Assembly (NCBI GenBank): GCA_039679675.1
Contig: JBDKUN010000059.1
Span: 127,608-191,607 of the forward strand
Reading direction: 5' to 3'
Source of the DNA: Armatimonadota bacterium
GTDB lineage: Bacteria; Armatimonadota; UBA5829; DTLH01
Length of the DNA: 64,000 nt
Shown here in pieces: positions 16,860 through 40,830 of the stretch. The notes under the pieces were generated by a model. It did no database searches, was not told the origin of the DNA, and was given only the letters and a program-made list of their open reading frames with translations. The position numbers and the translations under genes are program-made. How positions within the stretch are numbered: position 1 is the stretch's first letter; each line of letters opens with the position of its first letter.

Positions 16860-19202
16860 ATGCGCGTTATAATCAAAGAAGAACCCTTTATTGATCCCGC
16901 CAAACACTGGGCTCAAAGAGGCTATTGGCCTGCCAGGGTTATCTCTCATCCCGAAGTAACTACTGATAAATCATCCGTAATGGCATACCGCCGGTGCTTC
17001 AACCTGCCACAGAACACGAAATTGCGGATTCATGTTACTGCAGATGAGCGGTACGAACTGTTTCTCGACGGCAATCGAATAGGCCGCGGCCCGGAGCGCG
17101 GTGACAGAGATAACTGGTTCTACGAGACATACGATCTGGTTCTCTCTGCAGGAAAACACATGCTGGTTGCACGCACCTGGTGGCTAAGCCCTGACAGTCC
17201 AGCACCGTATGCACAAGTGATGGTCCAGCCGGGGTTCGTCCTTGCTGCAGAAGGAGTCGAACCGGATATTCTAAACACAGGTGTTGCCGAATGGAACACT
17301 AAGATCATCGGCGGATATTCAACTGTTTGCCCTGAAGGCGCAGCCTGGGGAGCCGGTGCAAAGGTACATATAAGAGGCAATGAGTTCGCCTGGGGGTTCG
17401 AAAATGGCGACGGTGACGGTTGGGTCTCTGCAAAAACAATATGCCGTGTAGCTGCAGCATCGTATGCAAACGAATATCCCCATATCTGGATGCTTCGCCC
17501 GGCGGTACTTCCACCGATGATGGAAGAACCCCGAAAAGTAGGAGTAGTGAGGCATATTCAGAAAGTCGATACCGAAGATACTTCCCATATCTGTGTTACA
17601 AGTGCCGACAACATTCCATCTGAAGCAGAAGACTGGAATAAACTTCTTAAGGGCGCAGGCACGGTTATTATTCCGAATAACACCATGCGCCGCGTTATAA
17701 TCGACCTGGAAAACTACTATACAGCCTATCCTGAGATTACCGTATCGGAAGGAAAAGGCTCAAAAATCAGGATACTCTGGGCTGAGGCGCTATACCTCGA
17801 CATAGACAATAGAAGTCTAGGAAAAGGGAACCGCAACGAGGTAGAAGGAAAATACTTCTTCGGAATGGGTGACACTTTCGAACCGGACGGAGGTAAATCC
17901 CGAAGGTTCGACACCCTCTGGTGGGAAGCCGGGCGCTACCTGGAGATTTTCATATCGACGGCTGATCAGCCGCTTGTAATCGAGGACTTTACGCTCCGCG
18001 AGACTCATTATCCTTACGATTTTAAGAGTAAATTTGACGCAAGTGACAACAGACTTGCCGAGGTTGTTCCAATTGCATTGAGAACCCTTGAAATGTGCTC
18101 TCACGAGACCTATATGGACTGTCCGTATTACGAACAGTTGATGTATGTGGGCGATACCAGACTTGAAGTGCTGACTTCGTATGCTACGACCCGCGATGAC
18201 CGCCTTCCAAAGAAAGCACTTTTGATGTTCGACCGCTCTCGAAGGTTATCCGGGCTTACGCAGTCCCGCTATCCGAGCAGGGTGACGCAGATAATCCCGC
18301 CGTTTTCGCTCTGGTGGGTCGGGATGGTCCACGATTTTGCGATGTGGAGAGACGACCCTGAGTTCGTCAAAAGCCTTATCCCCGGCATAAGGACTGTAAT
18401 TGACGCATTTATCGGTTATATCAACGCAGACGGGCTTGTAGAAGGCCCCAGAGGATGGAACTTCACGGACTGGGTGCCGAACTGGTGGGATGGTATCCCG
18501 CCGGACGGACACCTGGGAGTGAGCGGGATTCTCAACTGGCAGACCGCGCTGATACTCGGCCTTGCTGCGGAGTTGGAGAACACCTTCGGGGACCCGGAAA
18601 TCGCCCAGAGGAACCTTAGGATGCGGGACAGGATATCCGCAACATCCAAAGAGGTATTCTGGGACAATGACCGAGGTATATTCGCCGACGATCTTTCGAA
18701 GGAGCACTACAGCGAGCATTCTCAGTGCCTCGCACTCCTTGGGGGAACTGTAGATGGCTACAAACGCGACAGAATGATCGAGGGACTCCTGACTGACCCT
18801 AATCTGGAGCGGACGACCATCTATTTCAGCCATTATCTCTTCGAGACTTACCGGCTGATAGGAAGAATAGATAAACTCTTTGAGCGTATGGGCCTATGGT
18901 TCGATCTAAAGGGTCAAGGCTTCAAGACAACGCTTGAAAAACCGGAGCCGAGCCGCTCTGATTGCCACGCATGGGGCGCACATCCGGTATATCACTACTT
19001 CGCCTCAGTGCTTGGAATCCGGCCTGCATCGCCAGGGTTCAAGACGGTCAAAATAGAGCCGCAGCTAGGGCATCTGAGCTATGCGAAAGGCGAGATGGTG
19101 CATCCTAAAGGGATGATCAAGGTGGAAGTCGAGCAGAAAGACGGTAAGATTTCGAGCAATATAGCACTACCTGATGGGATCGAACTGGTATCAAATACTT
19201 AA
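16860..19202 (+). CDS. Putative six-hairpin glycoside hydrolase (GH78 alpha-L-rhamnosidase-like)
   Basis: METYMDCPYYEQLMYVGDTRLEVL resembles the GH78 catalytic-domain motif (DCP-x-RE-x-LGW-x-GD) and the overall length fits. There is a TATAAT at 16836-16841 and a GGAG RBS 7 nt before the ATG. The family call is tentative. Confidence 0.45.
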   Translation: MRVIIKEEPFIDPAKHWAQRGYWPARVISHPEVTTDKSSVMAYRRCFNLPQNTKLRIHVTADERYELFLDGNRIGRGPERGDRDNWFYETYDLVLSAGKHMLVARTWWLSPDSPAPYAQVMVQPGFVLAAEGVEPDILNTGVAEWNTKIIGGYSTVCPEGAAWGAGAKVHIRGNEFAWGFENGDGDGWVSAKTICRVAAASYANEYPHIWMLRPAVLPPMMEEPRKVGVVRHIQKVDTEDTSHICVTSADNIPSEAEDWNKLLKGAGTVIIPNNTMRRVIIDLENYYTAYPEITVSEGKGSKIRILWAEALYLDIDNRSLGKGNRNEVEGKYFFGMGDTFEPDGGKSRRFDTLWWEAGRYLEIFISTADQPLVIEDFTLRETHYPYDFKSKFDASDNRLAEVVPIALRTLEMCSHETYMDCPYYEQLMYVGDTRLEVLTSYATTRDDRLPKKALLMFDRSRRLSGLTQSRYPSRVTQIIPPFSLWWVGMVHDFAMWRDDPEFVKSLIPGIRTVIDAFIGYINADGLVEGPRGWNFTDWVPNWWDGIPPDGHLGVSGILNWQTALILGLAAELENTFGDPEIAQRNLRMRDRISATSKEVFWDNDRGIFADDLSKEHYSEHSQCLALLGGTVDGYKRDRMIEGLLTDPNLERTTIYFSHYLFETYRLIGRIDKLFERMGLWFDLKGQGFKTTLEKPEPSRSDCHAWGAHPVYHYFASVLGIRPASPGFKTVKIEPQLGHLSYAKGEMVHPKGMIKVEVEQKDGKISSNIALPDGIELVSNT

Positions 19203-19349
19203 GGCTGAAAAGTTGTCGAAAACTCGTGGGTATATGGGGCGAACTGCGATCCCGGAAGATACGAACAGATAGCAAGGGGCATGGATGCCCTGGAGAATGG
19301 GGACCGGGGGATCATGCCCCGGTCCATCAAGATCGCCGAAAGCTAATAG

Positions 19350-20327
19350 CTATCTCGGCACTTCGACTGCTGCGAGGATATTCGTGACTATCCTGTCGGC
19401 TGTAAGGCCTTCTATTTCTGCTTCCGGGCGAAGAATCAGCCTGTGGCGAAGAACTGCGGGCGCTAAGGACTTTATATCATCCGGTATCACGAAGTTCCTG
19501 CCTCTCATTGCAGCTAGAGATTTCCCTGCAAGAAGAAGTGTGATGGATGCGCGCGGGCTGGCTCCCAGAATCAAATTCCTGTCCTGCCTTGTCCGATATA
19601 CAATCTCCCCGATGTAGCGGATAATCGGCTCATCCACGACAACTTTGCTGATTTCCTCGCGGCAGGCGGCAAGATCTGCCTCGCTCACGACAGCGTGGAC
19701 ACCTGCATCTTCGATTTTTATCGGCCTGAACCCTGCATTGTAGTTCTGGAGGATTTTATGCTCTTCGGCTGAATCGGGGTAATCCACCAGAACCTTCATC
19801 ATAAACCTGTCGAGCTGAGCTTCGGGAAGCGGATAAGTTCCCTCATATTCTATAGGGTTTTGCGTTGCCAGCACCATAAAAAGCGGTGGAAGCGGATACG
19901 GCTCTCCGTCTATCGTCACTTTCCGCTCTTCCATTGCCTCCAGAAGCGCTGCCTGTGTCTTAGGCGGCGTCCTGTTGATCTCATCGGCAAGGAGAACGTT
20001 CGTAAACACCGGCCCGCGCCGCATCCTGAACTCTCCCTGTGTAGGGTCGTATACATTCGTCCCGATTACATCCGACGGCATCAGGTCCGGGGTGAACTGC
20101 ACCCGTTTGAAGTCTGCCGAGACAACATGCGAAAGGGTTCTGACGAGCAATGTCTTAGCTATCCCCGGAACACCCTCCAGAAGGACGTGGCCTTCCGCAA
20201 AAAGAGCAACTATCACCTGCTCGATTATGTCTTCCTGACCCACAACAACTTTCCGAAGCTCCTCGCGAATACTATCGGCGGTCGCTGCTACTTTATTATT
20301 TGCTTGTGTTTGATCGGGCAATTCCAA
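19350..20327 (-). CDS. moxR: MoxR-family AAA+ ATPase
   Basis: VVGQEDIIEQVIVALFAEGHVLLEGVPGIAKT (Walker A), LLADEINRTPPKTQAALLEAM (Walker B/sensor) and VLATQNP are diagnostic MoxR signatures. Confidence 0.85.
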   Translation of the reverse strand: MELPDQTQANNKVAATADSIREELRKVVVGQEDIIEQVIVALFAEGHVLLEGVPGIAKTLLVRTLSHVVSADFKRVQFTPDLMPSDVIGTNVYDPTQGEFRMRRGPVFTNVLLADEINRTPPKTQAALLEAMEERKVTIDGEPYPLPPLFMVLATQNPIEYEGTYPLPEAQLDRFMMKVLVDYPDSAEEHKILQNYNAGFRPIKIEDAGVHAVVSEADLAACREEISKVVVDEPIIRYIGEIVYRTRQDRNLILGASPRASITLLLAGKSLAAMRGRNFVIPDDIKSLAPAVLRHRLILRPEAEIEGLTADRIVTNILAAVEVPR

Positions 20328-21459
20328 GCTCCCTTCTTAACTCTTCAATTGATCTTATCAACAATATTGTTTCGCTGTCTGAGACTTCATAGCCCCCCAT
20401 GACGCGCTCGCATCGTTTTATAACCGATTCCAATTTAGATTTATCTACCGATGCAAACCTGAGCACTGCTTCCACGACTTCATTGGGGGGTTCGTGCTGC
20501 TTCACACCAAACTTCATCACAAGCTCTCGCCTGAACGAACTATAAATAGCGGCAAACGCATGCTGCCGCGCATTTGCCCTGTAATACAGTCCTGCCATAG
20601 CGCGGACAAGCTCCCAACCCCTCCGCTGCTCCTTTGCTTCCTTCAGCGGATGGATCTCCCCAAAACGCCGTCCGGCGCTTATCATCACAAGAAGCACGAC
20701 CAGAAGCAGGTTAAATAGCACAAGTTTACCGCCAATTCCAAGCATGGGCGGCATCTCTTCGTCACTCAACGGGTCAGACTTATACTCCGAGAAGAGCACA
20801 CGATCGTTCTTGCCCGCATTTTCGTATATCATATTGGTAGCCAAAACGATATTATCTGTCTTTTTTATGTTGGCGTTTGCGAAGATCATTGGATCACCGA
20901 CAAAGATGATCCTTCCCCTGCCGCTTGGATATTCCGCTGCTATTATAAAACCGTTATTTTCCAGAATAACAGACATTCCGCTTTTACGCCGTGCATACAT
21001 GGGAGTATAGTCTGTGAACACTGTCTTCACATTCGATGTATATCGCCCCGGTTTCGGATGCATTGTATAATAAGGCCGACTTCCGAAATACCTGTTGGCT
21101 TTTATCCCCAGAACATCCATCTGTTTTAGCGGCTTACTGAGCGAGATTATCAGGGTATTTCCTTTTTCGACCCACCTTCTGAGTGTATTTGCATCACGTT
21201 TGGAGAGCATATCCGGGTCCATCATCAGAAGTACCCGTGCGTCGTCTGGAATTTCGGCAAAAGACCTCTTATGCCTGCTCACTTTGAATTTCAGATCCTC
21301 CAGCAGAAGATAAAACGCCTTTGTGCCGTGGGGGCCGGTAGAATAACTGCTTGGCGAATCCATTTTGCCTGCTCTTTTCATCGCAGCCCAGCAGGAGAAT
21401 ATTCCTAGCAGAATTATAATCAGAATCAGCGTCCGGGCGTCACGTGAAAGCCTCATCAC
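20296..21459 (-). CDS. DUF4350-like membrane-anchored protein (MoxR-associated)
   Basis: N-terminal TM (LILIIILLGIFSCWAA) plus a roughly 350-aa domain. Placement between a DUF4129-like gene and moxR with overlapping junctions matches the canonical DUF4129-DUF4350-MoxR neighbourhood. The sequence-level family match was not verified. Confidence 0.4.
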   Translation of the reverse strand: MMRLSRDARTLILIIILLGIFSCWAAMKRAGKMDSPSSYSTGPHGTKAFYLLLEDLKFKVSRHKRSFAEIPDDARVLLMMDPDMLSKRDANTLRRWVEKGNTLIISLSKPLKQMDVLGIKANRYFGSRPYYTMHPKPGRYTSNVKTVFTDYTPMYARRKSGMSVILENNGFIIAAEYPSGRGRIIFVGDPMIFANANIKKTDNIVLATNMIYENAGKNDRVLFSEYKSDPLSDEEMPPMLGIGGKLVLFNLLLVVLLVMISAGRRFGEIHPLKEAKEQRRGWELVRAMAGLYYRANARQHAFAAIYSSFRRELVMKFGVKQHEPPNEVVEAVLRFASVDKSKLESVIKRCERVMGGYEVSDSETILLIRSIEELRRELGIARSNTSK

Positions 21460-22232
21460 TTCGCCTCCGCTGCTTCTACCGACTCATACGCGCGTATGAA
21501 TGACTGGTAGTCACCGTCACAGGCAGACTCATGCCCATACCATTTGCGGTCAAACACCATAGTTACCGGCTTCAGCGTATCGTGGACCTGATGGTATTTT
21601 CTGAGCATAGAAAGGTACTCCCAGTTGGTGCCGGTACGGTCGAACCGAATGAGGTCACGTTCATCCAACCGAAGCAGGATTGCAAGATAGACCAGTCTGA
21701 GTGCTGCGCGGTAATCTCCGCTCACTGCCATCTTCTGAGCTTCATCCAGCGCATTTCGGGGAATAGTGGGGCCTGAATATATGCTGTTATCTTCGTCTTT
21801 TTCTCTGACTTTAGCTGTACGCCTGATATTGATAACATTTGAGGTAATGAGAGCAAGAATACCGATCAGTAGAACTATAGCAATTACAGTGACAATTACC
21901 CCGAATCCATTAGGGACTCCTATCGGTCCTATTCCACTTCCAAATATCCCTCCTAATATCTTATCTATCGCCCTTCCGAACCATTTCAGAAATCTTTCCG
22001 AAAGTGAATAATCGGCACCCGCGAACTCACTCCGCGAGAGAATGGTGTTCAGTTTATCTTTTCGTACCTTTGGGGATGCCTGGACAATCGGGTCCTTTAC
22101 TCGTATGGCTTTTGAGGCAGCGCTGTGCTTAACCGGAGGCTGCACAGGCATAAGTAACTGCCTTGCAGCACCTACCGGCAATACTAAAACTGCCGTTAAA
22201 GCCAATATAGTGATTAGTAGCTTTTTGTTCAT
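21456..22232 (-). CDS. DUF4129-like protein (signal/TM, second TM, cytoplasmic C-terminal domain)
   Basis: C-terminal region ...DRTGTNWEYLSMLRK...FDRKWYGHE... has the T-x-x-EY and WYG pattern remembered for DUF4129. It is translationally coupled to its neighbours (4-nt overlaps). Confidence 0.45.
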   Translation of the reverse strand: MNKKLLITILALTAVLVLPVGAARQLLMPVQPPVKHSAASKAIRVKDPIVQASPKVRKDKLNTILSRSEFAGADYSLSERFLKWFGRAIDKILGGIFGSGIGPIGVPNGFGVIVTVIAIVLLIGILALITSNVINIRRTAKVREKDEDNSIYSGPTIPRNALDEAQKMAVSGDYRAALRLVYLAILLRLDERDLIRFDRTGTNWEYLSMLRKYHQVHDTLKPVTMVFDRKWYGHESACDGDYQSFIRAYESVEAAEAK

Positions 22233-23389
22233 TGCTGCGCGGGAGTATTTTGTTCAGGAGAAGCGGGACAGCCTGGTGTAGTGCATCCTCCGTGTTGGTT
22301 CCAACAGCTTCTATGCAGAACAGATTTGCACGAGGGGCACATCACCCCGTCTTCAAGAGAACGAATCGGATAGTGGCAATGGGCACATACAGGCTCCTGT
22401 GCAATTGCGGGCTGATATTGCACTTGGCCCACATTAGCTGGACTCGGCTTAGGCAGATCGGCTGCATTTCCGGTTCGTGATGCCAGATCGTATGCAAGCA
22501 TCTGAAGGTCGAACCCTTCCTTGCGGATTCTAATATCATAGTAGAGTAAAACAGTTACAATCGGAGATACAGGAGCCACAAGTACTCCAACAATGCCGCA
22601 AATCACCCCTGAAAACAGGCCCATTGCTGTTGTATTATCCCGACCTATGATCGGATAAGCTATGCCAAGGACTCCATATTGGACCATGCTTGAAATGATT
22701 GAGACTATAATGCCAGCGACAAAAGTATAACCCACTATTCTTCCAACATGTCTATCGGCTAAGCGCCAGCTTCTGATAATTGCTTCCTTTTTCGCAACTC
22801 CTTCTACAATAAGCGCCGTATAGCAAAGTGGCAATACTCTCAGTGAGAAACAAGTCACTGCAACAATGGCAGCGATTGTCAACGGTATTCCAATAATCAA
22901 ACCTACCGCTTTATACGTAAACATTAGAGCACAGCCAATTACCCCTATCACGACTAATCCTAAATATACAAGACCTATTAATAATATCGTTAGAAAAACA
23001 GAGCCCAGCCTTTGAAAAACATACTTATACGCATCGCCTATACTGGTAGATACATTCATGTAGCGTTGAGATATTGCATATGTAAATGCACATATGACGA
23101 TTGGGTATGCCAGCATGCAAAGAACATAAACACAGACAATTAAAATGCCTGTAGTTAGTCCTGCATTCGATAAAAACGGGGTAGCTCCTGGACTTGGATT
23201 GCCGCCATGCTGCATATTACCAAGAGTATTGGCGAAATTATTCGCTAGACCGGCGAGGAAGTTCAATGGGAAGAATACCAATGCTCCTATGCCAGCAAGA
23301 AGCGCGAAGTTGTTTTTGTACAGATCGAATGTCTCATCCAGAATATCGCCTAACCCCATCGGCCTAAACCGATTCTTCCGAATTGCCAA
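22229..23389 (-). CDS. Polytopic membrane protein (about 8 TM) with C-terminal prokaryotic-RING-like (Prok-RING_1-type) Cys/His zinc-binding domain
   Basis: Multiple hydrophobic helices throughout. The last 52 aa, CAHCHYPIRSLEDGVMCPSCKSVLHRSCWNQHGGCTTPGC, fit C-x2-C...C-P-x-C...H-R-x-C-W...GGC-x3-GC. It is the first gene of the MoxR operon. Confidence 0.5.
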   Translation of the reverse strand: MAIRKNRFRPMGLGDILDETFDLYKNNFALLAGIGALVFFPLNFLAGLANNFANTLGNMQHGGNPSPGATPFLSNAGLTTGILIVCVYVLCMLAYPIVICAFTYAISQRYMNVSTSIGDAYKYVFQRLGSVFLTILLIGLVYLGLVVIGVIGCALMFTYKAVGLIIGIPLTIAAIVAVTCFSLRVLPLCYTALIVEGVAKKEAIIRSWRLADRHVGRIVGYTFVAGIIVSIISSMVQYGVLGIAYPIIGRDNTTAMGLFSGVICGIVGVLVAPVSPIVTVLLYYDIRIRKEGFDLQMLAYDLASRTGNAADLPKPSPANVGQVQYQPAIAQEPVCAHCHYPIRSLEDGVMCPSCKSVLHRSCWNQHGGCTTPGCPASPEQNTPAQQ

Positions 23390-23441
23390 CTTAGTCCTCC
23401 GTATATCGGCGCCCGCACTGAACTGACGGCAAGGTCTGCCT

Positions 23442-23472
23442 GCATCAAATTATTAAGTATTAATTTGATGCG
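23442..23472. promoter_or_regulatory. Perfect AT-rich inverted repeat (11-bp arms, 8-nt spacer) about 53 nt upstream of the membrane/MoxR operon start
   Basis: GCATCAAATTA ttaagtat TAATTTGATGC. No flanking U-tract, so it is not a classic terminator. The position suits an operator. Confidence 0.3.
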
Positions 23473-23631
23473 GACAGCCATAACTCCTTCATTGTTTCAA
23501 GAATTTGGCATGGTATGTGGGAATGAGGTGATACCTGTCAATTATTGTCAGTTTATAGCAGAAACGACCGTATGAGCCGAGACGAAGCGCGGGGCTTCAT
23601 CGGTTCATTTCCGTTTTCCCGCGCATACGCT

Positions 23632-23847
23632 CTAGACTATGCCGACATTTACTGCCTGTGGGCCCTTCGATCCATCTACAAGCTCAAACTCAACACACTG
23701 CCCTTCACTTAGAGATTTATATCCATCCTTCCGTATTGCAGTGTAATGGACAAATACATCTCTATTTCCATCCACCTCAATGAAACCATATCCCTTGGCA
23801 TCATTGAACCATTTGACCTTCCCGGTCATCATACTGCTCGATTCCAT
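23632..23847 (-). CDS. cspA: Cold-shock protein (CspA family), second copy
   Basis: [38 protein letters not shown]...GPQAVNV. The N-terminus aligns with E. coli CspA MSGKMTGIVKWFN. Confidence 0.85.
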
Positions 23848-23900
23848 ACTCTATTGCTTCCTCCGTTACATGCCAAGCAAGCAGGCTTGTAATGTCACTT

Positions 23901-23929
23901 ATTGTAACATCAGTCAGCCCGCCTGTCAA
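23901..23929 (-). promoter_or_regulatory. Sigma70-type promoter for the second csp gene (TTGACA-17-TACAAT on minus strand)
   Basis: On the minus strand, TTGACA (plus 23924-23929), a 17-nt spacer, then TACAAT (plus 23901-23906). This leaves about 47 nt to the ATG, which is preceded by a GGAGG. Confidence 0.45.
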
Positions 23930-25190: not shown

Positions 25191-26147
25191 CTAACCCTCC
25201 TGTGACTCTATTACCGCAGCCGCGATTAGCGGCAGCATGATCTCATGATGCCCCACCAGCGATACCGACCTTCCTCCAAGCGCGCGTACCCGCCTAACAA
25301 TCTGTTCTTCTGATCGGTATTGGCGTATAAAGTCTAGGTTTACCGCAAATACTTTATCCATATTGCACCCGATGTTCGTTGCCATTGCAAATGACTTCAA
25401 TGCTACTTCGGGAAGTATTACGGCGGAGCCTACATTAAGGAGCACCCCACCCAACTGCATTAAATCTTCAATTTCGGCTGCGAATATCCTGAAGTCACGT
25501 AGCGAACAATCGCCTATGGCTGAACCATCGGCTCCCGGATGCATATGGACTATGTCCGTACCTATTCCGACATGCACCGTCACCGGAATTTCTGCTCTAC
25601 TTGCCGCAACAAGCAGACTTGAGCCTATACCCGGCGCATTTGACTTTATAAGCCTTTCGCCAAGAGATTCACCAAATCCCCGTTTCGATTCCAGACCGGC
25701 TACAGCCGCAGAGTTCACAAACTGAGCGGTCTCCATGCCCATGCCGAACTTGCCTTCCTTCAGGCCGGCCACTACATCCTCTGATGTACGGCCGTAGAGC
25801 GCCATTTCCGTGTCATGTATCGCGCCTGCGCCGTTCATGGCAAGCCCAGTGATGATCCCTCTGGCAATAAGGTCTGCTATAACCGGAGACAGCCCGCATT
25901 TGATGACATGAGCTCCGATTGAAAGGATAACCGGGCGCTTCTCGTGGGCCGCATCCGAGATGGCTGTTACTGCTGCTTTAATATCCCTGCCTGCCAGAAT
26001 ATCAGGAAAAGATGAAATAAGGTCGGTTATCTTACCGCCCGCTCGCCATGCAGACGCCGCACTTCCAATCTCGACCTTTCTATGCTGTTTTCCGACCTCA
26101 TGAGCCTTTATCCGGCTGCAATCAAATTCTCTAAACTTCGATGACAT
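25191..26147 (-). CDS. Deoxyhypusine synthase-like (DHS-like NAD-binding fold) protein of unknown role
   Basis: GRDIKAAVTAISDAAHEK...LSIGAHVIKCGLSPVIADLIARGIITGLAMNGAGAIHD aligns by eye with human DHPS GRAVQQVNAMIEKK...[38 protein letters not shown], including the shared IKC, and IPVTVHVGIGTDIVHMHP aligns with [21 protein letters not shown]. The assignment is by memory only. Confidence 0.4.
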   Translation of the reverse strand: MSSKFREFDCSRIKAHEVGKQHRKVEIGSAASAWRAGGKITDLISSFPDILAGRDIKAAVTAISDAAHEKRPVILSIGAHVIKCGLSPVIADLIARGIITGLAMNGAGAIHDTEMALYGRTSEDVVAGLKEGKFGMGMETAQFVNSAAVAGLESKRGFGESLGERLIKSNAPGIGSSLLVAASRAEIPVTVHVGIGTDIVHMHPGADGSAIGDCSLRDFRIFAAEIEDLMQLGGVLLNVGSAVILPEVALKSFAMATNIGCNMDKVFAVNLDFIRQYRSEEQIVRRVRALGGRSVSLVGHHEIMLPLIAAAVIESQEG

Positions 26148-26169: not shown

Positions 26170-27132
26170 TCAGCTTTTCTGCCAACTACCGAACAACTTT
26201 ACATACAACCAACTTTCGCGCTTTGGCCTGCCCAATATATACCAGAGAGCAACCAACCCATTTACAACTACCTTTCGGCGGTAATGCTCAGCAAGACCGA
26301 GTGTCACTACAACACCCAACGCATTCAACAGGGCCTGTATCAGCGCATTAGTAAACTGACAGCACCCTACCATCAGCTCAGGGACGATACCGAAATGCTT
26401 ACGCATGTAATAACAACGGCCCCGATTTCGTTCAATATAGGATGCTATACGTTTACACCTTACCGAAACCCCAATAAAATGTATGATCTTCGCTTCAGGT
26501 ACATATTCCATCTGCCAACCGGCATCAGCGATCATCTTGGAGAGGTCCGGGTCTTCGCAATAGAAGAAATATGACTCGTCAAAACCGCCAGCCTCTTTAA
26601 ATGCTGCCTGTCTGACCATAATAGCTGCTGCGCAAAAATATGCAATTCCTGCAAGCTGCTCTTTCCGCTCCACCATACTGGCAATTTTATGTCTGACACT
26701 CTTCCTGGCGCTCGAAAAAAGCACCGTTTTGGGAGTCATCAGCAGTGCCACAACTTCCTGATCCTTGTCATCAGCGTCCACAATCCGAGGCGAAGCTATA
26801 CCTGCTTTTGGGTTAGATTCCAGAGCTGATGCAAGACGTTCAACTGCGTTTGGACATACCAGGGTATCGCTGTTTAGAATGAACAGAAACTCACCCTGTG
26901 CCTCTTTTGCGCCAAGATTATTCGCCCGCCCAAACCCAAGATTTTTACTGCACTTTATTACCTTGACCGATGGAAACCGCTCACAAATAGCCTCAGCAGA
27001 CCCATCGGATGATGCATTGTCTACAACGATTATCTCGTAAGGCCTTGGGGGAACCGTCTTCTCAAGAGATGCTATGCAATCAATTACATGCTGTTTTGTA
27101 TTATGATTGACTATGATAACGCTAATATCCAA
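26170..27132 (-). CDS. Glycosyltransferase family 2 (GT-A fold)
   Basis: MDISVIIVNHNTKQHV...EIIVVDNASSDGS...ILNSDTL is the canonical GT2 N-terminal DxD-type signature. Confidence 0.75.
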   Translation of the reverse strand: MDISVIIVNHNTKQHVIDCIASLEKTVPPRPYEIIVVDNASSDGSAEAICERFPSVKVIKCSKNLGFGRANNLGAKEAQGEFLFILNSDTLVCPNAVERLASALESNPKAGIASPRIVDADDKDQEVVALLMTPKTVLFSSARKSVRHKIASMVERKEQLAGIAYFCAAAIMVRQAAFKEAGGFDESYFFYCEDPDLSKMIADAGWQMEYVPEAKIIHFIGVSVRCKRIASYIERNRGRCYYMRKHFGIVPELMVGCCQFTNALIQALLNALGVVVTLGLAEHYRRKVVVNGLVALWYILGRPKRESWLYVKLFGSWQKS

Positions 27133-27149
27133 TTTATTTCTGCTAATAA

Positions 27150-27920
27150 CTACTGTCTATTCAATTTTTCTTTGCAGTTGTTGCTTTGTAATTCCCACAT
27201 AATGGAGTAATGCACCAACCTGAAAAAAACGGGCATTGCTGAAAATACCAACCCCGGCACTCCGTGCATAAACCCCCGCCACAGGATGTAACGCCTGAAA
27301 AAGAGGTTCGGAAGCTCTGCAAAGTGACGGAATCCTACACGTTTTCCCTTAGCGAAATCGTCTTCTGCGCAGGCTCTTGCATACCGAAGGTTCTTCTCAT
27401 ACCACTCTTTAAGCTCTGTTATATTATAATGTTCAAGATACCCCTTGACCCAGCCGCATTTGCCACCGTAAACAAGCTTTGCATGAGTCGAACGGTCGAT
27501 AAACTTCACTCTATCCCTGCGGAATAGCCTTATCTCAGGCTTGGGGTGCATAACCCCGTATTCAGCCGGTTTATCTCTGTAATAATTTCTTCTGAGCATC
27601 TTGTAAACATCATACTCAGGCTCAGTTTTCAGCAGAGACTGTATGTTCTTCGCAAGCTCAGGAGATACAGCCTCGTCTGCATCTATAAAGACCGTCCAGC
27701 GGTTCGAACACTTGTCTGCAGCAAGCTGCCTCTGCCTGTTGGAACCCGGCCACTCGTTATAGAAAAACTTATCTGTGTATTCCCGGCATATATCTTCGGT
27801 TTTGTCAGTGCTGCCGGAGTCGACAATAACTATCTCATCCGCCCATTTGACCGATTCCAGGCACTCACGTATGCAATTCTCTTCATTCTTCGTAATGATG
27901 ATAACTGAAAGCTTTTCTAT
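27150..27920 (-). CDS. Glycosyltransferase family 2 (LPS-core WaaE/KdtX-like), apparently initiating at a non-canonical ATA codon
   Basis: The ATG ORF (27150..27599) is only the C-terminal half. Extending the same frame upstream gives a stop-free EKLSVIIITKNEENCIRECLESVKWADEIVIVDSGSTDKTEDI..., the conserved GT2 N-terminus. There is no in-frame ATG, GTG or TTG before it. An ATA at 27920-27918 sits 7 nt after a GGAGG and overlaps the upstream gene's TAG (ATAG), and it gives a 256-aa product typical of this family. Confidence 0.55.
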   Translation of the reverse strand: MEKLSVIIITKNEENCIRECLESVKWADEIVIVDSGSTDKTEDICREYTDKFFYNEWPGSNRQRQLAADKCSNRWTVFIDADEAVSPELAKNIQSLLKTEPEYDVYKMLRRNYYRDKPAEYGVMHPKPEIRLFRRDRVKFIDRSTHAKLVYGGKCGWVKGYLEHYNITELKEWYEKNLRYARACAEDDFAKGKRVGFRHFAELPNLFFRRYILWRGFMHGVPGLVFSAMPVFFRLVHYSIMWELQSNNCKEKLNRQ

Positions 27921-29011
27921 TTCTCTTTCCTCCGCTGGGAGATGAGTTCAGATGCAGCATCGAATGCACGATCAACCGTAATAGCCTGAAGACATTTAAA
28001 ATCTCCGCATGTAGGCTTATGTCCGCACGGAGCACATGAAAGTTGCTCCCAGAGCACTTTCGACTTATCGCAGTACGGCCCGGTTATCCTCGGATCAGTC
28101 GGCCCAAAGATCGCAACCACCGGAGTTCCCACTGAAACCGCGAGATGCATCGGCCCTGTATCATTACTGACTACCGCATCGCATTTTTCGAGGACCGCCG
28201 CAAGCTGACCGATCTTCGTGCGCCCAGCAATATCAATCGGCGGGTTCTTTGCCTTCCGCATCACTTCATCTACTGTTTCGCGCTCGGATGCCGACCCTAC
28301 TATTAGCACATTTAGGCCATCTGAGGCAAGCCTGTCCGCCAATGCTGCATACCGGTCAGGGAACCACTGCTTCGCAGCAACACTCGATCCGGGACTGATA
28401 GCTACAGTCGGTCTGTCTTTCGTTATTCCGACGGATTCGAGCAGGTCTGCTGCAAATTCACGTTCCTCTTTCGATGTAAACATCTCCATTTTGGGGTTTC
28501 GGACATCCGCGCCGATCGTCCGCACAAGATCGAGATACCAATCCACCCTGTGGCAGCCGGGCCTGCGTGAAACTGGATGCGTCAGAAACCTTGTCAGCCC
28601 AGGCTCATCGAACCCGACTCTTGTGGTCGCACCGGCCCACTTTCCGAGCGCGGCCATTCTGACGGAACTGAAGGTAAAGAGCACGCTCGTATCGCACCCG
28701 CCGGCGCGCACCTTGGGAATCATCTTGATGATCGAAAGGGGCCCTCTTTTTCGCGTCAGAACCTCATCAACGCATGGATTATGATTGAGAAGGTCCTCCA
28801 TACCGGAAAGGACGACATTGCGAATGCGCGCATCAGGAAAATTTTCTTTCAGTGCCCTTATCGCCGGTGTAGTGAAGAGGATATCACCAATGTGGTTTAG
28901 GTTGAGCAGAAGCAGGCAGCCATGATTGTTATGCAAATCAGGCAACCTCTTTTCGTGTATTTGGTTGAAGCGCGTTCTGCAAAACATCGCGATATACGCG
29001 CAGATTGCCAT
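27917..29011 (-). CDS. waaF: ADP-heptose:LPS heptosyltransferase (GT9; WaaF/RfaF-like)
   Basis: LLLNLNHIGDILFTTPAIRAL (the GT9 N-terminal R-x-SS-x-GD region) and C-terminal VSNDTGPMHLAVSVGTPVVAIFGPT. The true start is probably a later ATG, GTG or TTG than 29011. Confidence 0.7.
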   Translation of the reverse strand: MAICAYIAMFCRTRFNQIHEKRLPDLHNNHGCLLLLNLNHIGDILFTTPAIRALKENFPDARIRNVVLSGMEDLLNHNPCVDEVLTRKRGPLSIIKMIPKVRAGGCDTSVLFTFSSVRMAALGKWAGATTRVGFDEPGLTRFLTHPVSRRPGCHRVDWYLDLVRTIGADVRNPKMEMFTSKEEREFAADLLESVGITKDRPTVAISPGSSVAAKQWFPDRYAALADRLASDGLNVLIVGSASERETVDEVMRKAKNPPIDIAGRTKIGQLAAVLEKCDAVVSNDTGPMHLAVSVGTPVVAIFGPTDPRITGPYCDKSKVLWEQLSCAPCGHKPTCGDFKCLQAITVDRAFDAASELISQRRKEK

Positions 29012-30077
29012 CGACCATCTGATCTACGCTGAATTCAGACTGTACTAACCGGCGGCCGTTTTCACCGAACCGTTTTCCCAGCTCTCTATCACGGAATAAC
29101 TTAAGCACTGATTGCTTAATCGCCTCTGTGTCTTCGGGCTGGATCAAAAACCCGGTTTCCCCATCTCTGACTATCTCAGGAATACCGCCGACAGCCGATG
29201 CAACTATCGGAACACCGGCATACGCAGCCTGCAGCAGCGATACACCAAGCCCTTCACGAAGAGCCGGATGCACTACTACATCCAGATTAGTAAGAATCCT
29301 GTTCATATCTTCTCTGAATCCCGCAAACTGCACTTCTTCCGATATTCCCAGTTCCTGCACCCGGCTTTCAAGTTGAGCTCTGAGCGGGCCTTTACCAAAT
29401 ATCAGAAACCGAGCATCGGGAAACTCCTTCAATATATCCGGTATGACTGAAAAGAAATACCTGTGGCCCTTGCGCTCAATAAGTTGAGCTATTACACCTG
29501 CTACTGGAGCATCCTGAGAAATACCGAATTCTGACTCAAACCACTTTCTATCCCTATCGCACTGAGGTTTTGCCGTTATGATAGCACTGTGGACTAGCTC
29601 AAGCCGTTCTTCATCGATACCACAGTCACTGAGCACTTTTTTTATCCCACCGGAGATAGCTATGATCTTGTCCGGGATCACATTATATTTGAGACGCCCA
29701 AGAGCTCCCAGGCTGATACGGTCATCGACTCGGCGGGACAATACCACTGCGGGGACTCGCGCCATCCTTGCAGCTACCCCGCCCAAAATCTCTGCGCCTC
29801 TCCGGCTGTGGAGATGCACTACATCAGGCTTTACCTTCCGCACCTCACTATAGACTCTCAACACAAGCGAGGGATCACAGTCGCACCATACACTTACGGG
29901 ATGAACGGGTATGCCCGACCGGCGAGCCTCAGTCTCGATAGCGCTTCCCTTCGCGCATACAAGATCGACACCATGCCCTCTCTCGGCCAAGCCGCGCATA
30001 AGATAGACGACCTGCAGAGCTCCGCCGTACATATGCCTGCCGAACTCGATATGCACTGTATTTATACGGCCTTTCAA
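28938..30077 (-). CDS. Glycosyltransferase family 4 (GT-B; WaaG/RfaG-like)
   Basis: GGALQVVYLMRGLAERGHGVDLV... and C-terminal EGLGVSLLQAAYAGVPIVASAVGGIPEIV (the E-x7-E GT4 motif). Confidence 0.7.
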   Translation of the reverse strand: MKGRINTVHIEFGRHMYGGALQVVYLMRGLAERGHGVDLVCAKGSAIETEARRSGIPVHPVSVWCDCDPSLVLRVYSEVRKVKPDVVHLHSRRGAEILGGVAARMARVPAVVLSRRVDDRISLGALGRLKYNVIPDKIIAISGGIKKVLSDCGIDEERLELVHSAIITAKPQCDRDRKWFESEFGISQDAPVAGVIAQLIERKGHRYFFSVIPDILKEFPDARFLIFGKGPLRAQLESRVQELGISEEVQFAGFREDMNRILTNLDVVVHPALREGLGVSLLQAAYAGVPIVASAVGGIPEIVRDGETGFLIQPEDTEAIKQSVLKLFRDRELGKRFGENGRRLVQSEFSVDQMVDGNLRVYRDVLQNALQPNTRKEVA

Positions 30078-31132
30078 CTCTCTGCTCCCTCAAAACTGTG
30101 CGGAAATATGGCTGACTGCGCCGCCGATAAAACTTCCTCCGGCGTTACATCCGTTATGCACTCAAAACGTTCGCATGTCGGCTTTTTAAAGCATGGTACA
30201 CAGTCCATATCTTTTCTGACAACTGCGAAATTATCCCGATTAATATGGTTCTGCCAGGCGGTTGTCGGACCGAATATTCCTATAGATTGCTTTCCGATTG
30301 CAACGCCGGTGTGAAGAAGCCCTGTGTCGACCGCAACTACCAGAGAGCAACTGTCCTGAACTGCCACAGCCTGTTTAAGCGTTGTGCAGCCTGCTATATT
30401 AATCGCAGGGGCCTCTATTTTTGCCAAGATCCTATCGATCATCTCGCGGTCTTTTTTCACGCCAAGGAATATACTCCTCATGCCCATCTCATTCCACAAA
30501 AGATCCGCAAGTTTCGACCATCCTTCTTCAGACCAATGCTTGTTAGCCCTTGTAGTCGCAGGACAAAGGGCTGCCGCCTTTTCTCCTACGTTCAATCCAG
30601 CTTCTATTAATATCTTCGATGCTGACTCTCGTTCCTCATCACTGATAACCACCCGCATATCCCCGTCCTGGTCATCAGGAATGATCCCAAGCGGTTCAAG
30701 AAGCCTCATATAGCAGGCCATACCGTGACGGCAACGGCGTTTCGGAGCAGTTTTTTCGCAAGCTACGGTCTCATTGTAGGCTACTCCGCTGAACTCTCTG
30801 CTGTCAGCATAACCTATCCGGCGTTTTGCTCCCGATGCCGCAGTTACGAGGGCGCTCCGCGCTAATCCCTGGAAATCAAGAGCCACATCAAACTGGCGTT
30901 TTCTCAACACTTGCGTGAGTTTCAGAAAAGATGCCGGGCCGCTCCTGTCAAAGTTAATCGTCTCATCCACATCCGGATTGCCCTCAAGGATTCCAGCCGA
31001 TTTAGACTCGACTACCCAGGTAATCCTGGCATCCGGTATACGCCGTCTGAGCATGCGTACAGCAGCCGTAGTCATAACTACGTCCCCTATCGCACTCAGT
31101 CTGACGATCAATATGGATAAGTTGTTTGACAT
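30074..31132 (-). CDS. waaC: ADP-heptose:LPS heptosyltransferase (GT9; WaaC/RfaC-like)
   Basis: MSNNLSILIVRLSAIGDVVMTTAAVRMLR and C-terminal VAVDTGLLHTGVAIGKQSIGIFGPT. ATGA overlap with the downstream GT4 gene. Confidence 0.7.
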   Translation of the reverse strand: MSNNLSILIVRLSAIGDVVMTTAAVRMLRRRIPDARITWVVESKSAGILEGNPDVDETINFDRSGPASFLKLTQVLRKRQFDVALDFQGLARSALVTAASGAKRRIGYADSREFSGVAYNETVACEKTAPKRRCRHGMACYMRLLEPLGIIPDDQDGDMRVVISDEERESASKILIEAGLNVGEKAAALCPATTRANKHWSEEGWSKLADLLWNEMGMRSIFLGVKKDREMIDRILAKIEAPAINIAGCTTLKQAVAVQDSCSLVVAVDTGLLHTGVAIGKQSIGIFGPTTAWQNHINRDNFAVVRKDMDCVPCFKKPTCERFECITDVTPEEVLSAAQSAIFPHSFEGAES

Positions 31133-31153
31133 AATAAGGATTCAACCGGTTAC

Positions 31154-31894
31154 TTAATCGAACTCTTTCTGCTCCACTCCCGTATTAACAGTGATATCCT
31201 TTGTTTCTGTTGTCGCTGCCAGTTTTCCTTCACTGTTGTATACCTCAGCCTTGCATGGAGTCCAAATCCCGTTTACCTTGATATGGTTGAAGTATAGCGT
31301 CTTCACCTTGAGCGAGTCATCTCCGAACATCCTGTCGCGCCTCAACAATTTATAATCCTTACCGTCAATCCAGATCAATTGATACTTGCTGCTCTTGGCT
31401 GTCTTCAGCTTCAGAACATAAGCAAGTGAACCGTCTTCGTTCTTTTCAGTCCGGACCAGGCTGATATTGTAAATATCCCAGATGACATCAGATACTACGC
31501 CCACATCCAGCGGGCTCATTCGTTTTTCCTGCTCTTTCGATATATCTTCACGTTTTTTGTATCTCATAGACGGGATTCTAATGTGCCGGACATTACCTGC
31601 GGTGATGAATTCAACCTTCATCATACCCAGCACACCGTTTATCTTGAGGCTATCGGGGGCCTTAAACACTACTTTGGCGCTTTTAAACTCATAAAGCTCC
31701 GCGAAGACTTTGCCCATTTTCTGAAGCTCTCGCTGGTTGGAATTGACAACGACCAGATTGCAGCTAAGATCTTTCAGTCCACCTGCAGCCTTATGGACAT
31801 GAGTCTTGAGACTTTCCAGCTCATCTGCTGCGAAAAGCGTGGATGATATTGTTATCAAAGCTATAATTACTGCGAATCCGAATAACTTTTTCAA
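31154..31894 (-). CDS. Secreted LolA-like / outer-membrane lipoprotein-sorting-like protein (hypothetical)
   Basis: Signal peptide MKKLFGFAVIIALITISSTLFAA. The mature part has an alternating beta-strand pattern and is embedded in the LPS cluster. The family is not confidently assigned. Confidence 0.3.
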   Translation of the reverse strand: MKKLFGFAVIIALITISSTLFAADELESLKTHVHKAAGGLKDLSCNLVVVNSNQRELQKMGKVFAELYEFKSAKVVFKAPDSLKINGVLGMMKVEFITAGNVRHIRIPSMRYKKREDISKEQEKRMSPLDVGVVSDVIWDIYNISLVRTEKNEDGSLAYVLKLKTAKSSKYQLIWIDGKDYKLLRRDRMFGDDSLKVKTLYFNHIKVNGIWTPCKAEVYNSEGKLAATTETKDITVNTGVEQKEFD

Positions 31895-32820
31895 CTACTT
31901 GTCTCCATCGATTCCTTGACTGCTTCCGATGCCCGTTTCCATCTGTCGTGGAGCCACAGCCACTGAGACGGGTCTTTTCTGATCTCATCTTCTATTGCCG
32001 TGGTTATTGCCTGCGTCAGCATGTGAATATCTTCTTTTTCATTACCTGTATGAGTTACAGTAATAGGCGGGTATATTCTTGCCCTAAACCGGCCTTCTTC
32101 ATCCCTGCGCGCAAACCCACAGACAACTGGAGCGCCTGTTCTAAGTGCAAATACGGCAGGGCCTGTTGCAGTAGCACAGGGTTTGCCGAAAAAGTCTACA
32201 AATATACCGGTGAACGTGTTCTGGTCCGGCAGTATTCCCAAAACCTCATTTCTCTTAAGCGACCTGACAGCCGGAAGTGCTGAGTTGTCCCTGTCCAGCA
32301 CGTGATATCCGGCTGTCTCACGCATTTTGTTGGCAATGCCGGTCATCGCCGGGTCGTCGCTATTGCGGGCTATCACGTTCACTTTATAGCCGGATAGAAC
32401 CAGTTTTCGGGCAAATATCTCCCAGTTGCCCAGATGAGCCGTTATAAGAATAACGCCATGTCCCTTGGCAAGAGCTTCATCCATATATTCTTTTCCATCA
32501 AGATCAATCCAGGCATCAAGTTCCTCAGGCGGCAGGTGCAGAATATGCAAGAACTCCAGCATGCCTTTTGCAAAGTGCCTGCAGGTGTTTCTGGCAGTTG
32601 CGCGGACCTTCTCACTGCTCCATTCTGGATATGCCGCTGTGAGATTTTTTATAGCTACCCGCCTGTATCTTCGGGACATAAGAAACATAAAGTCTCCAAG
32701 TCTCCTGCCCCACCGGCCTATATTCGATTTGTTCAACCTGCTCGAAAAGCGAAGGAAAACCCATGCAGCTATCCTTCCGCCCAGAAATTCCAGTCTTTTT
32801 CTCAGCTTTCGGCGCGTCAT
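31891..32820 (-). CDS. lpxL: Lipid A biosynthesis late acyltransferase (LpxL/HtrB/MsbB family)
   Basis: Length, the N-terminal basic/TM region and the ITAHLGNWE (H-x4-E-type) acyltransferase motif. Confidence 0.7.
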   Translation of the reverse strand: MTRRKLRKRLEFLGGRIAAWVFLRFSSRLNKSNIGRWGRRLGDFMFLMSRRYRRVAIKNLTAAYPEWSSEKVRATARNTCRHFAKGMLEFLHILHLPPEELDAWIDLDGKEYMDEALAKGHGVILITAHLGNWEIFARKLVLSGYKVNVIARNSDDPAMTGIANKMRETAGYHVLDRDNSALPAVRSLKRNEVLGILPDQNTFTGIFVDFFGKPCATATGPAVFALRTGAPVVCGFARRDEEGRFRARIYPPITVTHTGNEKEDIHMLTQAITTAIEDEIRKDPSQWLWLHDRWKRASEAVKESMETSS

Positions 32821-35210: not shown

Positions 35211-35847
35211 CCGCCGCGCTTATAGCTTTTCCTATCATTTCAGACCACTTAGTCCGGTCTTCATCCGTCTCACATTTCCCGACATGTATCGGATCACCGA
35301 ATACGATACATGCCTTTGAAAACGGCTTTGGAACCTCGTGTTTATCCCATGAGTTGAACTGCCACACTCGTGAGCAAGCAATACCTACTGGCAAAATGCT
35401 GCAACCTGACCGTTCAGCCATCAGGACTATTCCAGGCTGCACCACCTTTGCCGGACCACGTGGCCCGTCCGGTGTAATAGTTATAATTCCGTCGTCTTTT
35501 ATGCGCTTCACTGATTCGAGCAGCGCTTTTGCGCCGTGTGCACGGCTGGAACCATGGACTATCCTATATCCGCGAGATTGAAGAAGCCTTGACTGCAGCT
35601 CACCGTCTTTTGACACCGAAACAATCGCCCAAAACCCCATATGACGGCAAAAGTATATCGGGAGTATAGTCGTTCCATGCCATGTAGCTATTACGCCACC
35701 ATGTCCTGAACTGCGCATATCTTCAAGCCGGTCTATTCCTACCGGCTTGATTCTCACAGTGCAGGCGATACCGGTGGAAACAAGCCACAAAAGCCGCCAG
35801 ATTATCTCAGTTCTGAGTTTTTTCCAGATGTCCTTCACTGGAAGCAA
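35152..35847 (-). CDS. DUF374 domain protein (lipid A/Kdo-associated lysophospholipid acyltransferase-like)
   Basis: Sits between msbA and waaA, where DUF374 genes typically occur. Contains ATWHGT and ITPDGPRGP motifs. Confidence 0.5.
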   Translation of the reverse strand: MLPVKDIWKKLRTEIIWRLLWLVSTGIACTVRIKPVGIDRLEDMRSSGHGGVIATWHGTTILPIYFCRHMGFWAIVSVSKDGELQSRLLQSRGYRIVHGSSRAHGAKALLESVKRIKDDGIITITPDGPRGPAKVVQPGIVLMAERSGCSILPVGIACSRVWQFNSWDKHEVPKPFSKACIVFGDPIHVGKCETDEDRTKWSEMIGKAISAADERAAEELFGKGKQDADCL

Positions 35848-37576: not shown

Positions 37577-37735
37577 AGTTGTTTCCTAACTGCTTAAAGA
37601 GTTTCGGGTAATGATTGTAACAATCCTACGGACACATAACCAGTCAATGATAATGCTGCATCTGTTGTTTTTCGCTTACACCCGAAACTCTCCCGGAAGG
37701 AGTTTTGGCTGAAACGATATCTACTACTCGCTACA

Positions 37736-38248
37736 TCAGCTACCAAAACTCTGTAGCACCATTTTTATGGCGAAAGCAATCACTATGACTACTGTTCCCA
37801 TAATCGTTTTGACTTCTTTGTTCAGCTTGGCCTGCTTGAATGAGAACTTGTGGGTATCTGAAGTGATCCTGGCAGATAGACTGGGTATTATTCTCGGCAC
37901 TCTTTTGCAGTACACTTTGAAATCATCCCCAAACTGCTCGATCAGGAACCGTTCTTCCCATATCACAGCTGCGCCATGGAATGCAAAGAAAAGCGGTATC
38001 ACGATAGCCCAGACCAGCCATCCGCCGGTCATTGTAGAGTAGCCGCACGTTATGAAAAAGCTGCCGATGTAAAGCGGATTTCTGACATGGGCGAAAGGGC
38101 CTGAAACCGTCAGCACTTCTGATTTAACAAGATGTCCTGCTGACCATACTCTGATTGCCTCGCCAAATACAACCAAAACAAACCCTGCAAGTAAAGTCGA
38201 AAGCACGGGTTTTCCGAATACGAACATTATTATGGGCGCAACTAACAA
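37736..38248 (-). CDS. Isoprenylcysteine carboxyl methyltransferase (ICMT)/phospholipid methyltransferase-family membrane protein
   Basis: The SGPFAHVRNPLYIGSFF motif (ICMT/PEMT family) plus multiple TM helices. The ORF-track N-terminal about 80 aa overlap lpxB in another frame and are discarded. The likely start is TTG near 38248 or ATG 38227, just after the lpxB stop. Confidence 0.5.
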   Translation of the reverse strand: MLVAPIIMFVFGKPVLSTLLAGFVLVVFGEAIRVWSAGHLVKSEVLTVSGPFAHVRNPLYIGSFFITCGYSTMTGGWLVWAIVIPLFFAFHGAAVIWEERFLIEQFGDDFKVYCKRVPRIIPSLSARITSDTHKFSFKQAKLNKEVKTIMGTVVIVIAFAIKMVLQSFGS

Positions 38249-38280
38249 GAAGAAAGTCCTGCGTCTGAAAAGAAAGAAGC

Positions 38281-40300: not shown

Positions 40301-40830
40301 TCATGCACACTGCCGACTGCATTGTCGACCTGTTGTTTATTCTTTTTTCTTTCAACAAGAGCGAAGATAAACTCACCTTCAGCTACGACTTCATTGTCGA
40401 CGCTGGAAACTGCTTTAACTCTTCCGATGGTTCCACGAGTCTTGAGTAGTTCTACTTCGGTGATAAGAGTATCTCCAGGCAAAACCGGCTTTCGGAACCG
40501 CATATTATCCACACCACCAAGGTATGCGAGCTTGCCGACATTTCCGGTAAGTGATAAAAGGAGGACTCCCCCAACCTGTGCCATAGCCTCTATTACCAGT
40601 ACACCAGGCATAACAGCATGTCCTGGAAAATGTCCCTGGAAGAACTCCTCGTTAATAGTTACATTTTTTAATCCGACAATCTTCTTGGTGCCTTCGACTT
40701 TCAAAATCTTGTCAACTAAAAGAAACGGATATCTGTGTGGCAGAATACCTCTGATTTCCTCGATCTCGATCAACGCTCTCGCCCCCTGTTTACTATCTTT
40801 ACGCCGCTTGTTTGCTCTCTCCACCGGCAA
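40297..40830 (-). CDS. fabZ: 3-hydroxyacyl-ACP dehydratase
   Basis: ILPHRYPFLLVDKI...GHFPGHAVMPGVLVIEAMAQ motif. Confidence 0.85.
   Translation of the reverse strand: MPVERANKRRKDSKQGARALIEIEEIRGILPHRYPFLLVDKILKVEGTKKIVGLKNVTINEEFFQGHFPGHAVMPGVLVIEAMAQVGGVLLLSLTGNVGKLAYLGGVDNMRFRKPVLPGDTLITEVELLKTRGTIGRVKAVSSVDNEVVAEGEFIFALVERKKNKQQVDNAVGSVHE

Follow-up and report, generated by a model that had tools for sequence, protein, structure and literature searches.

Does a MoxR-family AAA+ ATPase operon that has no gene for the usual von Willebrand factor A (vWA)-type DUF58 partner, and that begins with a membrane protein carrying a RING-like finger, represent a new kind of system or a variant of a known one? 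The question is raised by four genes, here called A, B, C and D, at positions 19,350 to 23,389 of a 64,000-nucleotide stretch of DNA from an Armatimonadota bacterium (GenBank assembly GCA_039679675.1, contig JBDKUN010000059.1, positions 127,608 to 191,607). This whole stretch is referred to as the window, and coordinates are those of the window unless a related locus is named. A preliminary description of the locus had pointed to the RING-like membrane protein at the head of the operon in place of the missing partner, and had proposed an uncharacterised membrane-associated chaperone, remodelling or ubiquitin-like signalling system. The comparison with related loci leads to another answer, to which we give a probability of about 0.7: the locus is a lineage-specific reduced form of a known and widespread MoxR membrane operon of the Rv3689-Rv3695 type, and not a new kind of system. 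The widespread operon is known already, and what is new here is its DUF58-less, finger-bearing version.

Genetic organization of the MoxR operon and its canonical relatives

All four open reading frames (ORFs) lie on the minus strand. Gene A (22229..23389) encodes a polytopic membrane protein of 386 amino acids (aa), composed of a DUF7847/GPDPase_memb-like domain, a disordered linker and a C-terminal Prok-RING_1 finger; gene B (21456..22232) encodes a 258-aa bitopic protein with a C-terminal DUF4129 domain, gene C (20296..21459) a 386/387-aa DUF4350 domain protein, and gene D (19350..20327) a MoxR-family AAA+ ATPase of 323–325 aa. The ORFs overlap by 4 nucleotides (nt; ATGA) at A/B, by 1–4 nt at B/C and by 24–32 nt at C/D, which fits translational coupling. 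Moreover, the gene order A-B-C-D is found again in dozens of independent metagenomic loci, and thus the arrangement is not due to chance; A-B-C-D is a genuine four-gene operon. For gene A, a TTG start at 23389 is preferred over the ATG at 23359 of the public gene call, because GGAGGA is found 5 nt upstream of the TTG, and because the residues RKNRFRP added by this start align with KRRFRP, the conserved N-terminus in homologues. The preliminary description had reported four translationally coupled minus-strand genes, and this holds, as all junctions overlap. Its assignments of the RING-like finger, DUF4129, DUF4350 and MoxR also stand, each being above the Pfam gathering threshold in a hidden Markov model (HMM) check, and so does the convergent glycosidase gene described behind moxR, which is a GH78 rhamnosidase-like gene (Pfam) at 16860..19202 on the plus strand.

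The survey of loci was carried out with iterated HMMs and covered the contexts of A homologues and 80 metagenomic loci; 27 distinct loci with a complete MoxR gene and sufficient downstream DNA are informative. The canonical order that emerges is A-DUF4129-DUF4350-MoxR-DUF58-SpoIIM-like-RDD, with the A family at the head in many phyla. DUF58 directly follows MoxR in 19 of the 27 informative loci, often as an overlapping or abutting ORF, and these DUF58-bearing loci also contain SpoIIM (15/19) and RDD (16/19). By the named matches, the canonical form occurs in Acidobacteriota, Planctomycetota and Eremiobacterota, and it is also present in soil metagenomes. Compared with it, the window keeps A, DUF4129, DUF4350 and MoxR in collinear order, while DUF58, SpoIIM and RDD are not there. 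Since the A family heads the operon in the 19 DUF58-bearing loci too, A is no substitute for the vWA partner, contrary to the earlier reading, and only its finger of about 45 residues is new.

In Mycobacterium, the corresponding set consists of the membrane protein Rv3689, the DUF4350 protein Rv3691, MoxR2 (Rv3692), the DUF58 protein Rv3693, the SpoIIM protein Rv3694c and the RDD protein Rv3695, and its homologues in M. chelonae are strongly co-regulated (PMC8191103). This moxR2 locus (M. tuberculosis Rv3689-Rv3695, M. chelonae/M. abscessus) is like the window in the A-B-C-MoxR order, the four families and the tight packing, with Rv3689 and Rv3690 matched to the A and B families by annotation and position only. 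The main difference is that the window has no DUF58, SpoIIM or RDD, whereas its A protein has the extra Prok-RING_1 finger. The canonical operon is present in many phyla and in M. tuberculosis, and its reduced form raises the question of vWA-independent MoxR action. The operon is also related to an archaeal DUF4350-MoxR-vWA module, for which Makarova et al. (2015) predicted a complex acting in secretion or membrane remodelling (PMC5898192). It shares with the window a membrane-anchored extracytoplasmic DUF4350/flavodoxin-like protein (arCOG01314) and a COG0714 MoxR, but it has an Ig-vWA (DUF58-type) protein and S-layer or Ig-like proteins and, in the part of that paper describing it, comes without DUF4129, an A-family protein or the finger (PMC5898192). 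A haloarchaeal plasmid example of this module is locus L012 of our survey. More distant likenesses are RavA-ViaA, CbbQ-CbbO, NorQ-NorD and the Bat operon of Bacteroides, whose ATPases belong to the same AAA+ clade (AAA_3 + AAA_lid_2) as the window MoxR and presumably follow the same remodelling or maturation logic. There, the vWA protein acts as adaptor for the substrate, whereas no vWA/DUF58 is found at the window locus, among the scanned ORFs of the 64 kb, or in the flanks of seven related loci.

The empty DUF58 slot and the reduced clade

The vWA/DUF58 slot is indeed empty, as the preliminary description had stated, and it is so in all eight related lineages sampled, the window being one of them. 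No DUF58/vWA domain was detected in the four operon products, in 34 further ORFs of the window (mostly of at least 170 aa) or in the Pfam annotation of 23.4–33 kb. A vWA/DUF58 domain fused with, overlapping or concealed inside A, B, C or D, which would have overturned that description, was rejected as well, since profile-profile comparison (hhalign) of the family alignments with DUF58 gave a probability of at most 0.2%, with a self control of 100%. Eight of the 27 informative loci have no DUF58, SpoIIM or RDD (the window, L002, L005, L007, L010, L015, L016 and L026), and in none of the eight is any of the three found within flanks of up to 10 kb on each side. These loci form one Armatimonadota clade, with neighbour-joining bootstrap support of 200/200 for MoxR and 199/200 for MoxR plus DUF4350. 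What follows MoxR differs from locus to locus: MoeA, a metallophosphatase, an FGE-sulfatase/PEP-CTERM protein, or a PEP-CTERM-like ORF and then an SDR gene; in the remaining loci it is a convergent MurJ fragment, ORFs without Pfam hit or, in the window, the GH78 gene. The loss of DUF58, SpoIIM and RDD is old and stable, and is not an assembly artefact. The four-gene form has been kept over lineages in which identity is only 34–46% in A and 41–72% in C.

Only one subclade has the finger, consisting of the window, L002-4, L014, L015 and the database homologues P0002-P0013. L005, L007, L016 and L026 have an A gene without the finger and no DUF58, and among them L007 shares synteny with the window in the lipopolysaccharide (LPS) genes, PfkB and csp. 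Judged from this confinement of the finger to a subclade within the DUF58-less clade, DUF58, SpoIIM and RDD were lost first, and the finger was gained later. The neighbourhood survey of MoxR loci that had been suggested for Prok-RING membrane proteins without DUF58 therefore has a divided outcome: a DUF58-less clade exists, but the finger is restricted to part of it. L010 is a close relative (C is 50% identical), and it carries csp, an unrelated 153-aa ORF (6664-7125, no Pfam hit) and B-C-MoxR (7223-10150) without gene A. As A is absent there, the conserved core of the reduced operon is B-C-MoxR. A clade that keeps A-B-C-MoxR, and once B-C-MoxR alone, defines a minimal core in which MoxR may contact the cytoplasmic DUF4129 or C-terminal domains directly, and this may guide interaction and structural work. 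In L005 (GCA_039683595.1, 10001-11811), two tandem A paralogues, both fingerless, precede B-C-MoxR.

Predicted properties of the four gene products

The homologues of A are DUF7847 (PF25231), GPDPase_memb or YciC-type membrane proteins, and the named ones are mostly from Armatimonadota. The predicted model of A (predicted local distance difference test score, pLDDT, 88.8) has six long transmembrane (TM) helices. The even number of helices and the basic N-terminus predict a cytoplasmic location for the two termini and for the finger, and this location suits the Cys-rich zinc site of the finger. The membrane domain is predicted to adopt the fold of CysZ and the choline-transporter-like proteins (CTL/SLC44), as the model matches solved CysZ/CTL members structurally at about 10% identity; searches of A against Pfam EI24/CysZ and Choline_transpo gave no match at E<=1. 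Since the likeness to the sulfate permease CysZ and to the CTL/SLC44 proteins PNS1 and CTL1 is one of a predicted model at such low identity, their function is not transferable to A. If correct, the fold would provide the first structural handle on a large function-unassigned membrane family (DUF7847, GPDPase_memb, YciC-like), and may connect CysZ with the eukaryotic SLC44 fold. After the last TM helix there is a juxtamembrane motif, YYDIRIRKEGFDLQMLA (22493..22543, minus strand; consensus YYDxRIRKEGFDL), which corresponds to helix 283-295 in the predicted model and is invariant or nearly so both in 16 and in 74 family members. Of the 66 distinct loci in which DNA 3' of A is available, 60 have A followed by B. 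The A family also occurs outside the MoxR operon, as six A genes are not followed by DUF4129 (L017, L025, L029, L030, L054 and L089).

The finger occupies residues 334-375 of A (22265..22390, minus strand) and matches Prok-RING_1 (PF14446) with 33.9 bits against a gathering threshold of 29.1. Its pattern is C-x2-C-x13-C-x2-C-x4-H-x2-C-x6-C-x4-C, all eight ligand positions are invariant in 13 homologues, and PHD or RINGv fingers have the same C4HC3 order of ligands. In the AlphaFold2 model the finger follows the disordered linker as two short strands and a helix, with a pLDDT of 85–96 within full-length A and 80.8 alone. From its sequence and its model, it is a bona fide Prok-RING_1 domain, predicted to be a cross-brace binuclear zinc finger. 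Compared with the eukaryotic RING, PHD, C1 and ZZ cross-brace fingers, its scores for PHD and C1 at least equal that for RING-H2: a profile search of PDB sequences returned the Pygopus PHD (2.4e-4), C1 (4.5e-4) and then RING-H2 (about 5e-3). A HMMER search with the finger recovered 4500 representative proteins at E<=1e-3, many of them with two to four tandem copies. The best 142 relatives (P0134-P0275) are Prok-RING_1 in 141 of 142 cases, and the domains that occur together with the finger in them are zinc ribbons, RDD, DUF4190 and WD40. The fusions to RDD, a family of the canonical operon that is not present at the window locus, amount to five of these 142 proteins.

B starts with a signal or anchor, has a single long hydrophobic/TM segment in its middle and ends with the DUF4129 domain (PF13559; 28.3 bits vs a threshold of 24.8 in Pfam, residues 182-250, 21483..21689), which covers the full model length and is predicted to be cytoplasmic. 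C has 76.5 bits for DUF4350 (PF14258, threshold 30.4) at residues 38-210 (20830..21348), covering model positions 1-180 of 181; by hydropathy, which also gave the layout of B, it begins with an anchor, continues with DUF4350 and a TM segment, and ends in a C-terminal domain that is helical, basic and conserved. The DUF4350 domain is accordingly predicted to be periplasmic, and the helical C-terminal domain cytoplasmic. DUF4350 is related to GldG/flavodoxin-like domains (PMC5898192), and in the family alignment the DUF4350 domain of C is without an invariant Cys or His. D scores 221.6 bits for AAA_3 and 79.3 bits for AAA_lid_2 (Pfam), and the motifs read from its translation are Walker A GVPGIAKT, Walker B LLADE, sensor-1 TQN, an Arg finger in QLDRF and sensor-2 GASPR. 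By these sequence features D is a MoxR-proper type AAA+ ATPase (COG0714) with intact catalytic motifs. The PADLOC defence models gave only generic weak AAA+ matches (TRIP13 6e-4 and DolB 5e-3), and an anti-phage defence system, having no PADLOC support, was rejected.

Proposed mechanism and alternative explanations

Considering these features, the locus is most likely a reduced membrane-anchored MoxR remodelling module, in which the finger would be a tethered cytoplasmic interaction domain. A, B and C may assemble as an inner-membrane complex, in which the flavodoxin/GldG-like DUF4350 domain is on the periplasmic side, and to the cytoplasmic side of which B contributes its DUF4129 domain, C its helical C-terminal domain and A its termini, including the finger. 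The MoxR hexamer would bind these cytoplasmic modules of A, B and C directly, and its ATP hydrolysis would assemble, remodel or gate the complex, a possible target being the CysZ/CTL-fold protein A. In most lineages, the contact between MoxR and the complex would be mediated by DUF58, a vWA-like protein anchored in the membrane. The canonical DUF58 proteins start with a hairpin of two TM segments, after which basic residues follow, and are for this reason membrane-anchored adaptors, probably on the cytoplasmic side. In the DUF58-less clade, MoxR might make this contact directly, or the contact might be provided in trans. On its flexible tether, the finger could serve as a zinc-stabilised protein-protein module, offering an extra docking or regulatory site, rather than as a ubiquitin E3.

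Several points weigh against this reading of the locus. Characterised MoxR ATPases use a vWA partner, as in RavA-ViaA, CbbQ-CbbO and NorQ-NorD. The genome is visible for 64 kb in the window and for flanks of at most 10 kb in the relatives, and a DUF58/vWA gene may lie elsewhere. The DUF58-less clade is not recovered in a tree of DUF4350 only, for which the distances are saturated and partly undefined. The L010 locus shows that A and its finger are dispensable for the B-C-MoxR core. Hydropathy and a predicted model are the only basis for the topology of the operon proteins. When the C-terminal domain of C was tried as a second DUF4129-like domain, it gave a non-significant hhalign E value of 0.054 and no Pfam hit, and this assignment was rejected. 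Finally, the literature gave no demonstrated function for any member of the canonical operon family, and the mechanism is hence one that we infer, including the topology, the contacts between the proteins, the part played by ATP hydrolysis and the physiological substrate.

The alternative that survives best is a functionally canonical system, whose DUF58/vWA protein, perhaps together with SpoIIM and RDD, has been relocated in the genome and acts in trans, so that the empty slot would reflect gene order and not mechanism; we regard it as a serious possibility, though on balance an unlikely one. Both the dependence of characterised MoxR ATPases on vWA partners and the limit of 64 kb speak for it, and DUF58 is a common family, with more than 5000 proteins across many phyla in a profile search. 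However, relocation would have to account for the absence of all three genes from the flanks of all eight loci, where the joint loss resembles the deletion of a module, and for the position of DUF58 directly after MoxR, often overlapping or abutting it, in the 19 other loci. No Armatimonadota protein is among the best 120 matches to the operon-type DUF58 profile, which also counts against an adaptor in trans, but these matches are dominated by Acidobacteriota and are therefore uninformative. If DUF58 is truly absent from these genomes, the operon would be a rare case of a MoxR acting without a vWA adaptor. The finger could also be a newly evolved substitute for the lost adaptor, which would make the operon a natural vWA-independent MoxR system, a proposal that we consider decidedly improbable. 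As a general answer to DUF58 loss the finger fails, since both finger and DUF58 are missing from L005, L007, L016 and L026, and L010 does not even have A.

We likewise give little credence to a transport or secretion apparatus, in which A would be a permease or channel and the DUF4350 domain a GldG-like substrate-binding or scaffolding part, with MoxR energising or gating the whole. This corresponds to the 'novel secretion system' that was proposed for the archaeal DUF4350-MoxR-vWA module. However, the CysZ/CTL match on which a transport function of A would be based comes from a predicted model at about 10% identity, and transport by CTL proteins is itself disputed (PMC13160678). Moreover, L010 retains B-C-MoxR without the putative channel, and the neighbourhoods vary in L002, L005 and L013, so that the linkage to LPS genes is probably local synteny only.

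A machine like that of endoplasmic-reticulum-associated degradation, with Hrd1/Doa10 plus a Cdc48 analogue, would have the finger of A as a membrane-anchored RING E3 or recruiter and MoxR as the ATPase that extracts or remodels the marked membrane proteins, the ubiquitin-like protein (Ubl) being encoded elsewhere. It is very improbable. MoxR groups in one AAA+ clade with the remodelling chaperones RavA, CbbQ and NorQ, and is not known to be a Cdc48-like threading unfoldase. No Ubl, E1, E2 or JAB domain was found among the scanned window ORFs or in the homologous loci, and none of the 25 most frequent Pfam families in the best 142 finger relatives is a ubiquitin-system domain; in contrast to a eukaryotic RING, the finger of the window is thus without ubiquitin-system context. 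Furthermore, it matches PHD and C1 equally well or better than RING-H2 and has the C4HC3 order, its residues between C1 and C2 are Ala-His/Tyr and not the hydrophobic residue typical of E2-binding RINGs, and it is a late add-on that is absent from sister lineages with the same operon. Nothing in its sequence marks it as an E3. Of the system first proposed for this locus, the membrane-associated MoxR operon therefore remains, but the ubiquitin-like signalling has no support. That the locus is a decaying, functionless remnant of the canonical operon is hardly credible, because in spite of the loss of three canonical genes, and of A as well in one relative, the four overlapping ORFs and the MoxR motifs are all intact, no finger ligand varies, and the four-gene form is maintained at the low identities given above.

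Upstream region and genomic surroundings

A cold-shock protein gene (csp, 23632..23847, minus strand) is located directly 5' of the operon. A strong, near-consensus sigma-70-like promoter, TTGACA-17-TACAAT with a TG (extended -10), lies 5' of csp at 23929..23901, and a good promoter was not found in the interval between csp and A. The gene is also directly upstream of the operon in L007, and in L010 the unrelated ORF is the only one separating it from B. This position of csp in the window, L007 and L010 suggests co-transcription, or a cold or stress linkage. An AT-rich palindrome with 20-nt arms (23436..23477; coding strand CTGTCCGCATCAAATTAATA..TATTAATTTGATGCAGGCAG) has its end 47 nt 5' of the start of A. 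It may be an operator or form an RNA hairpin, and in eight related loci no such palindrome is conserved 5' of the operon. The only Rfam match, to the cspA thermoregulator at 23578..23912 (minus strand) over the csp gene, is below threshold (46.3 bits vs 78). With this sub-threshold match, and with the palindrome not kept in relatives, a regulatory RNA or operator was rejected as an explanation of the region. At the other end of the operon, GC-rich inverted repeats (19276..19325) are situated inside the 147-nt gap between moxR and the GH78-like gene. They are probably a shared terminator region; a simple terminator scan did not flag them, as no T-run is present there.

The window as a whole is an Armatimonadota region for lipid-A, LPS and outer-membrane biogenesis, in which the LPS and outer-membrane genes are followed by PfkB, csp, the A-B-C-D operon, GH78, enolase and pyruvate kinase. 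Within the LPS-core cluster, between a GT2 glycosyltransferase gene and the PfkB kinase gene, there is a 318-aa protein (25191..26147, minus strand) with weak sub-threshold deoxyhypusine-synthase-like and ArgZ-like Rossmann matches only, and L007 has a 318-aa ORF without Pfam hit at the equivalent position. The LPS-core synteny beside the operon is common to the window and L007, and is absent from more distant relatives. The operon comes at the end of a long run of genes for lipid A, the LPS core and outer-membrane biogenesis, all on one strand (26170..51327, minus strand); this run encodes LpxA/B/C/D, FabZ, Skp, BamA, a 1520-aa TamB, heptosyltransferases and a KdtA-LpxK fusion (32817..35210).

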